From a virus (taxonomy: Duplodnaviria; Heunggongvirae; Uroviricota; Caudoviricetes): 4,066 nt of DNA. Each line of letters begins with the position of its first letter. The first letter of the stretch is position 1. Shown piece by piece: positions 1 through 1,452 of the stretch. A program made the translations under genes and the position numbers. Under the pieces are notes generated by a model. It saw only the letters and a program-made list of their open reading frames with translations, was not told the origin of the DNA and made no database searches. The stretch lies in the IMG/VR virus record IMGVR_UViG_2534681940_000043. The stretch is one strand, 5' to 3'.

Positions 1-357
1 GAATTTGCTTTTGAAGCGTTAATGCATGATGCAACAGAAGCATATTGCCAGGACATCCCCGCACCACTGAAACGCCTTCTTCCTGACTATAAACGGATGG
101 AAGAAAAAATAGACGCCGTAATCCGTGAGAAATACGGGTTACCTCCTGTTATGAGCACGCCAGTGAAATATGCCGATCTCATTATGCTGGCAACCGAACG
201 CCGCGATCTCGGGCTTGATGATGGTTCTTTCTGGCCTGTACTGGAAGGTATCCCGGCGACAGAGATGTTCAAAGTTATTCCACTGTCACCAGGCCATGCC
301 TACGGGATGTTTATGGAACGTTTTAACGAGTTATCGGGGTTACGCAAATGCGCATGA
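1..357 (+). CDS. HD-domain metal-dependent phosphohydrolase, YfbR-like (5'-deoxynucleotidase family); 5' end lies outside the window
   Basis: The reading frame is open from base 1 (EFAFEAL precedes the ATG at 22), so the gene is 5'-partial. The motif MHDATEAYCQDIPAPLK resembles the YfbR core as I recall it (YHDASEVLTGDLPTPVK), with the HD dyad at 25..30 and the downstream Glu. A later VKYADL matches the position of the second metal-binding Asp region (VKQADAL in YfbR). Stop TGA at 355..357. Confidence 0.75.
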   Translation, partial: EFAFEALMHDATEAYCQDIPAPLKRLLPDYKRMEEKIDAVIREKYGLPPVMSTPVKYADLIMLATERRDLGLDDGSFWPVLEGIPATEMFKVIPLSPGHAYGMFMERFNELSGLRKCA

Positions 358-935
358 ATGTTTTCGAAATGGAAGGGTTTCTTCGCGGGAAATGTGTACC
401 GCGAGATCTGAAAGTGAACGAAACAAACGCTGAGTACCTAGTGCGTAAATTTGCTGAAGCTGAGGCCAAGTGCGCGGCGCTGGCTGAACGTATCGAAGAG
501 TTACAGACAAAACCTACGCCAGATTCGTTTGGCATCATCGGTGAAAATATTCGAACACAGGATAATCGAATAACGTCAGACCCTATGTTTTGTGTGTATC
601 AAAAGCGCGAAATTGTTGTTGATGCTGATTATGACTATGACCGGATTGTCTGGGTTGATGAAGATGGCAATGAAGCCAATAAACTCCAAAGTCGTCGTCT
701 CGAACTACTTCATGAAAACTTTCGGGAACCACCAGAAAAATGGCGGCGCGTTGCTGTGAAAGATATTGATGAATTCGTTACCTGCTGTTTCACCGAACAG
801 GGTTGTAAAGACTACCTGGCAGCCAATGGTCACAATCTTCGCTTGCCATTTATATATGTAAAAAGCGGTTTCAGGAACGCTGAATATATCGGCATAAGAA
901 CCTGGCTTGCTGGCATTCGCATCAAAGGAGAGTGA
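348..935 (+). CDS. Hypothetical phage early protein with N-terminal coiled-coil segment and Cys-containing C-terminal region
   Basis: 195-aa ORF in the operon frame. Start is ambiguous: ATG 348 (GGGG at 336..339, 8 nt upstream) or ATG 354, which forms an ATGA overlap with the upstream stop. Heptad-like stretch EYLVRKFAEAEAKCAALAERIEELQ. C-terminal TCCFTEQGC cluster. No family recognised confidently; its position is similar to lambda ea22, but homology is not established. Confidence 0.7.
   Translation: MRMNVFEMEGFLRGKCVPRDLKVNETNAEYLVRKFAEAEAKCAALAERIEELQTKPTPDSFGIIGENIRTQDNRITSDPMFCVYQKREIVVDADYDYDRIVWVDEDGNEANKLQSRRLELLHENFREPPEKWRRVAVKDIDEFVTCCFTEQGCKDYLAANGHNLRLPFIYVKSGFRNAEYIGIRTWLAGIRIKGE
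925..930 (+). promoter_or_regulatory. Shine-Dalgarno (AAGGAG) for the CDS starting at 937
   Basis: AAGGAG lies 6 nt upstream of ATG 937; the upstream gene's stop (933..935) sits inside the spacer, indicating translational coupling. Confidence 0.55.
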
Positions 936-936
936 T

Positions 937-1452
937 ATGGCGTTAACACACCGCGAACTCTGTCAGATTGCGTACAAGTTCCTTAAGCGCAACGGGTTCA
1001 AGGTTTGTTTTCATGACCGCTTTATAGCTGTAACCAGTACCGGAGAACAGCCAGATGCTATGGGATTCAGAAATTCAGCATCATGCCTGATAGAGGCGAA
1101 ATGTTCTCGTGCTGACTTGTTGGCAGATAGAAAAAAGCGTTTTCGTAAAAATCCGTCTCTTGGAATGGGCGACTGGCGATTCTTTATTAGTGAGCCGGGA
1201 ATTATTTCAATTGAGGATTTACCACCTGGCTGGGGATTACTTCACGTTGTTAACGGAAGAGTACGGAAAGTACATGGGTGGCCCAAGGGTAATTGCTGTT
1301 GGGGTAATCCTGACGATAAGCCATTTACTGGAAATAAGCAGGTTGAATGCGATTACATGTTGTCTGCATTAAGGCGCATGGAGTTGAGAGGGCACCTTAA
1401 TGAAATATATGACGGTGTAATTGTTAATAAGAAAGAAGGAAACGCGGCATGA
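937..1452 (+). CDS. PD-(D/E)xK nuclease-fold protein, MmcB-like (putative DNA repair/nuclease)
   Basis: 171 aa from ATG 937. The ORF-track start at 907 is TTG without an SD, so ATG 937 with AAGGAG is preferred. Canonical motif GEQPD(40)...LIE(53)AK(55): Asp codon at 1054..1056, then E-x-K 13 residues later. Size and motif layout fit the MmcB-like family as recalled. Stop TGA 1450..1452 overlaps the next start. Confidence 0.7.
   Translation: MALTHRELCQIAYKFLKRNGFKVCFHDRFIAVTSTGEQPDAMGFRNSASCLIEAKCSRADLLADRKKRFRKNPSLGMGDWRFFISEPGIISIEDLPPGWGLLHVVNGRVRKVHGWPKGNCCWGNPDDKPFTGNKQVECDYMLSALRRMELRGHLNEIYDGVIVNKKEGNAA

Follow-up and report, generated by a model that had tools for sequence, protein, structure and literature searches.

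Three adjoining genes upstream of xis and int in a lambdoid Escherichia coli prophage: likely independently assorting modules of an accessory region

CPS-53 of Escherichia coli K-12 carries the gene series yfdP-yfdQ-yfdR-yfdS-yfdT-torI (Noguchi & Katayama 2016, PMC4776307). YfdR is an HD-domain 5'-deoxynucleotidase of low nucleotide affinity that also binds domain I of DnaA, and its overexpression with YfdQ and either YfdS or YfdT blocks initiation at oriC (PMC4776307). A second point of reference is the exo-xis region of lambda and Stx phages, home of the Ea22 proteins, whose domain structure and mosaicism have been described (PMC10834534, PMC7093339). Full-length lambda Ea22 requires its Ead_Ea22 domain for a pro-lysogenic effect, the Ea22 proteins of WGPS8 and 1717 belong to class V3 (Table 1 of that study), and difficulties in modelling V3 were also reported (PMC10834534).

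The window analyzed here, a stretch of 4,066 nucleotides from an IMG/VR virus record, opens with three co-directional open reading frames (ORFs) on the plus strand (1-357, 354-935 and 937-1452; hereafter g1, g2 and g3), with a 4-nt overlap at the g1/g2 joint and a 1-nt gap at the g2/g3 joint. The g1 frame is open at the 5' end of the window and closes with TGA at 355-357. g2 starts with ATG at 354, forming an ATGA overlap with the g1 stop; an ATG at 348, the start annotated for K-12 yfdS, is an alternative. g2 ends with TGA at 933-935, AAGGAG lies 7-8 nt 5' of the g3 ATG at 937, and the g3 stop codon occupies 1450-1452. These coordinates and overlapping or near-overlapping joints, and the position 5' of xis/int within the non-essential early region, agree with the preliminary description of this DNA. 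The region corresponds to exo-xis of lambda. In our judgment, positions 1-1452 belong to the early-left accessory region of an E. coli prophage of lambdoid (CPS-53/Stx) type and very likely comprise three independently assorting neighbor modules. Because the genes shuffle independently, they form no dedicated three-gene system and are an ordinary mosaic of passenger genes: a YfdR nucleotidase, an Ea22-type recombinant and an uncharacterized nuclease. As a three-gene system the set is unimportant, the combination being a rare recombinant of familiar modules.

g1 (1-357) consists of the 3' 118 codons of yfdR, encoding the HD-domain 5'-deoxynucleotidase and DnaA-binding protein, and the HD phosphohydrolase proposed earlier for this position was correctly recognized. 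The 118 residues of g1 align in full with K-12 YfdR residues 61-178 at 96.6% identity; a full-length copy in locus L001 shows 97.8% identity, and PGAP annotates the gene as yfdR in L001, L002 and L042. g1 matches phrog_318/6402 ('deoxyribonucleoside 5' monophosphate phosphatase', E 4e-66), and the full-length copy matches PDB 2gz4 (E 2.6e-13). The dyad (LMHDATEAY) and downstream Asp (KYADLIM) of the HD motif (H...HD...D) lie inside the window; the upstream His (VAQH) is visible in the full-length L001 copy. Pfam PF12917, which was built on YfbR, is marginal for YfdR itself, and both the full-length copy (24.3 bits) and the window fragment (20.4) missed its gathering threshold of 25.9. NCBIfam returned a weak 5'-deoxynucleotidase match and nothing else.

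The 193-aa product of g2 (354-935, plus strand; alternative start 348) joins sequence of two origins. Residues 1 to ~35-38 are YfdS-type, the first ~35 being identical to K-12 YfdS, whereas residues 39-193 (155 aa) are 95-97% identical to ead/Ea22-like proteins of 276-298 aa and 92.9% identical to WGPS8 Ea22. The DNA breakpoint falls inside the gene at about 460-469. In alignment, the entire Ead_Ea22 region is replaced by 38 aa of YfdS-type sequence; g2 had zero Pfam matches, and so none to Ead_Ea22 (PF13935). The protein ends ...IKGE, the +GE end common to Ea22 proteins. We infer that g2 is a recombinant in which the YfdS N-terminus became joined to the C-terminal domain of Ea22 V3, a pro-lysogenic variant. 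Because most of the Ea22-tetramerizing coiled coil is missing, its activity is probably altered or lost. An AF2 model built on a 17-sequence alignment had a pLDDT of 53, a low value that reflects near invariance of the C-terminal domain among the aligned homologues and is in keeping with the published difficulties with V3 (PMC10834534), and searching PDB with the g2 sequence gave chance matches only. The label 'coiled-coil protein' applied to g2 in the preliminary description survives in part: the low-confidence model predicts one helix of ~27 residues (25-51), but the Ead_Ea22 N-terminal/coiled-coil region has been lost.

g3 (937-1452, plus strand) encodes a 171-aa protein, MmcB-like and Hjc-related, within a single-gene module at 909-1463. 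It displays the alpha-beta-beta-beta-alpha-beta core fold of the PD-(D/E)xK superfamily and the conserved D...(D/E)-x-K motif, bearing out its earlier assignment to that nuclease fold. E37, D40, E53 and K55 are the putative catalytic residues. D40 is invariant in all three family alignments, and the other three residues are invariant in two of them (43 and 15 sequences) and at least 90% conserved in 58 representatives reaching down to 33% identity; g3 retains every invariant residue of its own family. PF06319 (MmcB-like) gave no match to g3 even at E <= 10, but was weakly matched by distant relatives (6 of 58, best E 6.5e-5, and 2 of 15 in another set), and the g3-family profile matched 3dnx with E 1.7e-4. 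g3 therefore represents a family related to PF06319, of which it is not a member. The family numbers at least 3,220 clusters at 50% identity, is caught by no Pfam model at cut-off, and occurs in temperate and some virulent phages, P1-like plasmids and conjugative elements, among which g3 may travel as a single-gene module. A truncated 111-aa form is common (P0061, 645 members). PGAP flags the gene as 'frameshifted'; a broken g3 was rejected, as its 171-aa ORF runs without interruption and matches identically the intact annotated genes P7 upf89.0 and WGPS8_06. Fold and motif suggest a stand-alone, Mg2+-dependent endonuclease, MmcB/Hjc-like, that would most likely target damaged or branched DNA in phage replication or recombination. 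The value of g3 itself is modest: it represents a widespread nuclease family of phages and mobile elements that has no curated model and looks catalytically intact.

The same tight coupling extends past these genes through at least three more towards xis and int, all on the plus strand. g4 (1449-1805) encodes a 118-aa protein (phrog_5117) with a YfdT-like N-terminus (42 aa, 83% identical to K-12 YfdT residues 1-42) and starts in an ATGA overlap with g3 (1449/1452). It is similarly joined at 1802/1805 to g5 (1802-2008), a truncated DUF551 gene of 68 aa that matches only positions 1-16 of the Pfam DUF551 profile and within which window identity to L001 stops, at about 1981. A further ATGA overlap (2005/2008) leads into g6 (2005-2088), a possible but doubtful 27-aa hydrophobic ORF (translation MSWPDAIVTLGVVFAAAFVVFSICRWG) that matched no family in Pfam or PHROG. 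There follow g7, encoding a DUF4222 protein (2093-2335; PF13973, E 8e-14); g8, a 44-aa conserved phage ORF (2339-2473; phrog_3871, E 2e-32); xis, an excisionase gene (DUF1233; 2492-2746; PF06806, E 2e-29) annotated as xisR in L042; and int, a tyrosine integrase gene (2780-4066; Pfam Arm-DNA-bind_2 and Phage_integrase) whose product is 99.5% identical to the integrase of an O26:H11 prophage adjoining mlrA. Both integrase and excisionase are intact. Of the operon junctions, five measure 1 nt or less and two have gaps of 3-10 nt.

The promoter scan found no sigma-70-like promoter anywhere in the window and the terminator scan no terminator-like site on the plus strand of 1-2100; neither scan revealed a promoter or terminator setting the three genes apart, and an Rfam scan of the window found zero RNA families. 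This absence of consensus signals suggests that one long transcript probably covers g1-g3 and another six or seven genes, reaching xis and int. Because the coupling continues downstream and no signals delimit them, the three genes are an arbitrary slice of about 10 co-directional genes ending in xis and int. g3 homologues in 30 other species likewise abut or overlap their neighbors, whichever those are. Since these unrelated neighbors are equally tight, close junctions are the rule in this region and no evidence for a specific partnership. Upstream, where recombination genes had been expected, one complete genome identical over 1-1981 instead carries yfdP, yfdQ and a repressor, with exo and bet absent.

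At the g2/g3 joint lies an Ea22-type 3' boundary of 27 nt, GCTGGCATTCGCATCAAAGGAGAGTGA (909-935, plus strand), a presumed recombination joint that encodes AGIRIKGE and a stop and holds the Shine-Dalgarno sequence of the next gene. It was found exactly in 29 of 123 fetched loci, lambda ea22 among them, with at least eight different C-terminal endings on its 5' side and at least eight different genes on its 3' side; in lambda, no gene follows it. Stop-start overlaps thus sit in short conserved boundaries that contain the next gene's ribosome-binding site, and different modules are joined there. Such boundaries would provide translational coupling and may serve as joints for homologous recombination; the joining of modules at the 27-nt boundary points to it as an exchange joint. 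Also of modest value, the boundary accounts simply for the published puzzle of why every Ea22 protein has a conserved '+GE' end: this end is encoded by the 27-nt sequence, which contains the ribosome-binding site of whichever gene comes next. The case also warns against taking overlaps of stop and start codons in the early operons of phages as evidence of a dedicated functional unit.

Co-occurrence was assessed in 5,426 complete E. coli genomes at a query coverage of at least 80%. Bases 1-1500 were contiguous in one genome, the yfdR-g2 joint was present in 26 and the g2-g3 joint in 317. O26:H11 FWSEC0001 has an identical yfdR-g2 and no g3, the next genes being a 63-aa ORF and a DUF551 gene. 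By blastn, the window divides into mosaic blocks shared with K-12 and WGPS2 (1 to ~460/483), WGPS8 (469-1983), P7 and L002 (909-1463), and WGPS2 and L042 (~1990/2053-4066). Across 34 species-representative loci with a g3 homologue, drawn from other species, yfdR occurred within 6 kb of it in two and the g2 C-terminal domain in none; one Ewingella locus (L017) has yfdR directly 5' of g3. The upstream neighbors of g3, readable in 32 loci, span over 20 unrelated families, with NinB, Lar, methylases and TraV among them. A viral sample, 80 IMG/VR loci whose YfdR is at least 98% identical, gave a complementary picture: yfdQ adjoins YfdR on the upstream side in 69 of 73 loci and a YfdS-type N-terminus lies directly 3' of yfdR in 70 of 77, whereas g3 lies within 4 kb of yfdR in 7 of 77, and the g2 C-terminal domain and g3 occur together in none of the 80. 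The functional partners of YfdR are probably the upstream yfdP/yfdQ and the YfdS-type gene, with g3 not among them. In PADLOC-DB 2.0, none of seven proteins (g1-g5, g7 and g8) had a match at E <= 0.01; the sole hit, to g2 with E 0.031, is at chance level.

The preliminary description had proposed a shared function for the three genes, as one co-translated cassette in which a nucleotide hydrolase and a nuclease act via a coiled-coil bridge in an undescribed system for defense, counter-defense or DNA processing. The tight joints at 354/357 and 935/937 and the position in an accessory region fit such a cassette, for which phage T5, combining host-DNA degradation with a dNMP phosphatase (Dmp), offers an analogy. 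The co-occurrence data largely refute it, and we regard it as highly improbable. Neighborhood conservation, named beforehand as a test, is lacking, for the three proteins are routinely found apart and come together in the single complete genome and in none of the 80 YfdR-bearing viral contigs. Each junction also occurs with other partners, the g2 C-terminal domain accompanies g3 at no locus of another species, no PADLOC model was matched at the cut-off, the proposed bridge is without most of its coiled coil, and unrelated neighbors are coupled equally tightly throughout the operon. A T5-like pair of nuclease and dNMP phosphatase for degrading host DNA was rejected as an obligate pairing, yfdR and g3 being rarely linked (2/34; 7/77).

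A narrower partnership, in which Ea22-type proteins and the g3 nuclease cooperate, for instance with Ea22 as scaffold or regulator, is also unlikely, if less so than the cassette. Ead_Ea22 (PF13935) proteins with varied C-terminal domains are encoded directly 5' of g3 at seven of the 32 species loci, as they are in P7 (Upf88.3) and Stx phages, and both Salmonella and E. coli have proteins in which an Ead N-terminus is fused in frame to the g3 domain (P0091, P0093, P0097, P0102, P0104, P0009). The seven loci are, however, closely related Enterobacter, Citrobacter and Kluyvera prophages and not independent; more distant taxa have other genes upstream of g3, and no adjoining Ea22 gene was detected where g3 lies in nin-type regions, conjugative contexts or virulent phages. 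The Ea22 3' boundary precedes at least seven other genes and, in lambda, nothing, and the fusions, with 1-15 member sequences each, are rare and to be expected where domains shuffle at conserved joints. There is a similarly small chance that the g3 family has a specific, undescribed role, such as a portable effector that cleaves the DNA of the host or of competitors, either in concert with Ea22-type scaffolds or as a fusion to them; if so, the long-unexplained Ea22 region would be tied to a definite biochemical activity serving the lysis-lysogeny decision or anti-defense. Somewhat more plausible, though still doubtful, is that g2 and possibly g3 are non-functional remnants of a degenerating prophage. 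Decay would account for the PGAP pseudogene flags in L001, L002 and L042 (g2 'missing N-terminus', g3 'frameshifted'), the loss from g2 of the domain needed for the pro-lysogenic effect of lambda Ea22 (PMC10834534), the truncation of g5 and the frequency of the 111-aa g3 form. Yet both ORFs are intact in the window, as are int and xis; g3 is identical to its P7 and WGPS8 counterparts with all family-invariant residues kept; and g2 has a proper start codon common to yfdS and recurs in a 193-196-aa form (clusters of 113, 9 and 30 sequences, besides the 26 genomes with the yfdR-g2 joint). Independently assorting modules remain our preferred reading.

Four described systems come closest to the window and its modules. 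From MmcB-like nucleases (PF06319; structure 3dnx, SPO1766; Caulobacter MmcB), g3 differs by its own invariant GMGDWRF, WGL and LRR motifs and by its carriage on phages and mobile elements, MmcB being an SOS-regulated chromosomal gene (PMC9578287). All g3 matches to the archaeal Holliday-junction resolvase Hjc (PF01870) were below threshold, and g3 has an additional C-terminal helical region (residues ~119-160). With K-12 CPS-53 the window shares gene order and orientation upstream of xis/int: yfdP and yfdQ precede g1 in L001 and L042 exactly as in K-12, g2 opens with the YfdS N-terminus and g4 with that of YfdT. Unlike in CPS-53, the DUF551 body of YfdS is swapped for the Ea22-V3 C-terminal domain, g3 separates the yfdS-type gene from the yfdT-type one, other sequence takes the place of the YfdT C-terminal part, and the integrase is of another type (Arm-DNA-bind_2), the related prophage adjoining mlrA. 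Also close to the window is the lambda/Stx exo-xis region with Ea22 V3 (P27, 1717, WGPS8; PMC10834534, PMC7093339). g2 residues 39-193 are continuous with g3, g4 and the first part of g5 in a block 98.4% identical to WGPS8 and 1717, and this block has the +GE end and 27-nt 3' boundary of lambda ea22. Canonical V3 Ea22 proteins measure 276-315 aa, in contrast to the 193 aa of g2, which is without the Ead_Ea22 N-terminal domain and long coiled coil, and where the canonical Stx/lambda order has orf60a, orf63, orf61, orf73 and exo upstream, the window has yfdR.

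The window is an unbroken series of plus-strand ORFs, and the three genes that a preliminary description placed at its 5' end were found at those positions. g1 is open at its 5' end and stops with TGA at 355–357. g2 runs from an ATG at 354, in an ATGA overlap with g1, to a stop at 933–935; an alternative ATG at 348 is the annotated K-12 yfdS start. g3 begins with an ATG at 937, one base past the g2 stop and with AAGGAG just 5' of it, and stops at 1450–1452. ATGA overlaps recur at g3/g4, g4/g5 and g5/g6 (g4, 1449–1805; g5, 1802–2008; g6, 2005–2088), two more junctions have gaps of 3–10 nt, and xis (2492–2746) and int (2780–4066) follow on the same strand. 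Consensus scanning detected no sigma-70-like promoter in the whole window, versus 7.0 ± 3.1 in dinucleotide-preserving shuffles, and no plus-strand terminator-like site in 1–2100. Because tight junctions run on downstream and such signals were not found, the limits of a three-gene unit are arbitrary. Promoter depletion across the window would fit selection against promoters inside a long early operon. After de-repression, the early-left promoter would transcribe the whole gene string, with translation presumably coupled through the stop-start overlaps.

g1 covers the 3' two-thirds of yfdR, with 96.6% identity to residues 61–178 of K-12 YfdR and a match to PHROG 318 (E = 4e-66). All matching genomes carry the PGAP name yfdR, 5'-deoxynucleotidase, for this gene. 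The protein has an HD domain and is a relative of YfbR. It has been described as binding domain I of DnaA and as inhibiting initiation at oriC when over-supplied along with YfdQ plus one of YfdS and YfdT (PMC4776307). Together with YfdQ and YfdS/T-type proteins, YfdR may act on DnaA and/or the dNMP pool.

Alignment shows g2 to be a recombinant: residues 1 to ~35 match the K-12 YfdS N-terminus exactly, and from residue 39 on the protein shares 95–97% identity with the C-terminal 155 residues of ead/Ea22-like proteins of 276–298 aa. Identity to Ea22 of Stx phage WGPS8, which has been assigned to variant V3 (PMC10834534), is 92.9%. Pfam scanning and alignment revealed neither an Ead_Ea22 domain nor a long coiled coil in g2, and its AF2 model, of low confidence (pLDDT 53), has a single helix (25–51) followed by mixed alpha/beta structure. 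The earlier label of coiled-coil protein is therefore only marginally fitting. g2 would correspond to the Ea22 V3 C-terminal domain minus its oligomerising scaffold, and is probably attenuated or neofunctionalised, since the lambda Ea22 C-terminal domain by itself lacks pro-lysogenic activity (PMC10834534). PGAP tags g2 'missing N-terminus' (window 468–935; 5219–5686 in the O26:H11 FWSEC0001 locus; 9468–10115, covering g2–g3, in the AUSMDU00014361 locus), yet its ORF is uninterrupted in the window. g4 is likewise chimeric, its first 42 residues being 83% identical to K-12 YfdT and the remainder unrelated. Retention of N-terminal segments with exchange of C-terminal bodies seems to be the norm in this operon, as seen also in g2 versus YfdS and versus WGPS2_06.

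g3, the sole functionally unassigned member of the trio, is a new family-level relative of a known superfamily. It has no match in Pfam, NCBIfam or PADLOC. Its predicted fold is confident (pLDDT 87), and a profile from 58 diverse relatives matches 3dnx (E = 1.7e-4). Some relatives weakly match Pfam Hjc and MmcB-like, and BFVD structural neighbours include phage proteins with MmcB-like annotation. D40 is invariant in all three family alignments, while E37, E53 and K55 show no variation from enterobacteria through to Flavobacterium, and their conservation across the 58 representatives is ≥90%. The GMGDWRF motif, invariant over the same taxonomic range, is partial in the representatives, where G76 reaches at least 90% and G78 and R81 are invariant. 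Fold and conserved E37/D40/E53/K55 thus uphold the initial PD-(D/E)xK assignment. g3 is a putative metal-dependent endonuclease, for which branched or damaged DNA may tentatively be proposed as substrate class by analogy with MmcB and Hjc. The family numbers at least 3,220 representatives (50% clustering, E ≤ 1e-3) and occurs in 641 phage records, among them P7, Stx phages, and Klebsiella and Vibrio siphophages; virulent Ackermannviridae carry it as the N-terminal core only.

The window g3 is identical to the intact annotated genes P7 upf89.0 and WGPS8_06. PGAP tags it 'frameshifted', annotating only the first 179 nt (window 937–1115; 5470–5648 in the wastewater isolate locus), yet the ORF is uninterrupted; a shortened 111-aa form starting at Met61 (representative P0061, 645 member sequences) may mislead PGAP. 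In P7 (L040 1159–5311), upf89.0 comes after an Ead-like gene and belongs to the 'hea' operon, for which a C1 repressor operator is annotated; P1-like plasmid prophages are thus further carriers of the module. Other homologues lie beside TraV/TraC-type conjugation genes or in nin-type regions (locus L037). An Ead/Ea22 N-terminal segment is fused in frame to the g3 domain in representative proteins P0091, P0093, P0097, P0102 and P0104 (Salmonella) and P0009 (E. coli), so the nuclease domain can fill the C-terminal-domain slot of Ea22-like proteins. The Salmonella fusions bear low-complexity QHLQ/NRQ and ELEL repeats.

The trio had been proposed as a dedicated defence or DNA-processing cassette, a reading that we regard as very improbable and that co-occurrence data essentially exclude, every such test being negative. 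Bases 1–1500 are contiguous (≥80% coverage) in 1 of 5,426 complete E. coli genomes, the yfdR–g2 joint being present in 26 and the g2–g3 joint in 317. In O26:H11 FWSEC0001, a 63-aa ORF and a DUF551 gene come after an identical yfdR–g2, and g3 is absent. Among g3-homologue loci of 34 species representatives, yfdR lies within 6 kb in two of them, the g2 C-terminal domain in zero; direct upstream neighbours (32 of 34 loci readable) come from over 20 unrelated families, NinB, Lar, methylases, NA37 and TraV among them, and downstream neighbours are equally varied, DUF551-type proteins being most frequent. In viral contigs with YfdR of ≥98% identity (n = 80), yfdQ is directly upstream of yfdR in 69/73, a YfdS-type N-terminus directly 3' in 70/77, and g3 within 4 kb in 7/77; none of the 80 combines the V3 C-terminal domain with g3. 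Hence, it is the genes on the opposite side of yfdR that are its conserved partners. In NZ_CP045827.1 (AUSMDU00014361), the yfdR–g2 junction occurs in two prophages (~3609423 and 5161046), one copy followed by g3 and the other not, a within-genome case of module exchange.

The 27 nt at 909–935, GCTGGCATTCGCATCAAAGGAGAGTGA, encode AGIRIKGE and a stop and hold the next gene's Shine-Dalgarno (AAGGAG). Exact copies occur in 29 of the 123 loci fetched, one of them at the end of lambda ea22 (L123 2348–2374, minus strand); the sequence also ends Stx Ea22 V3, P7 Upf88.3 and further Ead-like genes. At least 8 differing C-terminal endings precede it, and at least 8 different genes lie one base past its stop (no gene in lambda). 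Thus, the 935/937 junction is a generic conserved module boundary, and its tightness, previously taken as a hint of shared function, is no sign of g2–g3 partnership. The boundary probably explains the "+GE" end common to all Ea22 proteins, the significance of which has been called unknown (PMC7093339). That Ea22 and g3 form a functional pair is unlikely: adjacency recurs in 7/32 loci, P7 and Stx phages, and rare fusions join an Ead N-terminus to g3, but these cases cluster phylogenetically and the same boundary takes many other genes. PGAP flags suggest decay of g2 and/or g3, which is plausible for g2; for g3, an intact ORF and fully conserved motifs argue against it.

By blastn the region splits into blocks of 1 to ~460/483, 469–1983, 909–1463 and ~1990/2053–4066, with 469–1983 broken at 935/937 and ~1463 in other genomes. 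g3 is a single-gene module (909–1463), 99.3–99.6% identical in phage P7 and a Galapagos wastewater isolate, where differing Ead/Ea22-like proteins precede it. Bases 1–1981 are 99.95% identical to a prophage of E. coli AUSMDU00014361, where, as in K-12 CPS-53, the repressor gene, yfdP and yfdQ lie upstream; exo/bet, the recombination genes expected upstream, are absent there. From ~2053 onward the window matches an O26:H11 prophage adjoining mlrA. In the stretch ~1973–2090, AUSMDU00014361 identity stops at ~1981 and O26:H11 identity restarts at ~2053, a switch that truncates g5, a DUF551 gene, beyond its first 16 profile positions. Downstream of the cut, g6 is a 27-codon hydrophobic ORF of doubtful reality.

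Collectively, the region is ordinary lambdoid accessory-region mosaicism built of known families, with YfdR already characterised and Ea22 V3 described; what value remains comes from the g3 nuclease family and the boundary-sequence account of the Ea22 +GE motif. Canonical Stx phages instead carry the Ea22(V3)–g3–g4–DUF551 block after exo, orf60a, orf63, orf61 and orf73, in the exo–xis region.
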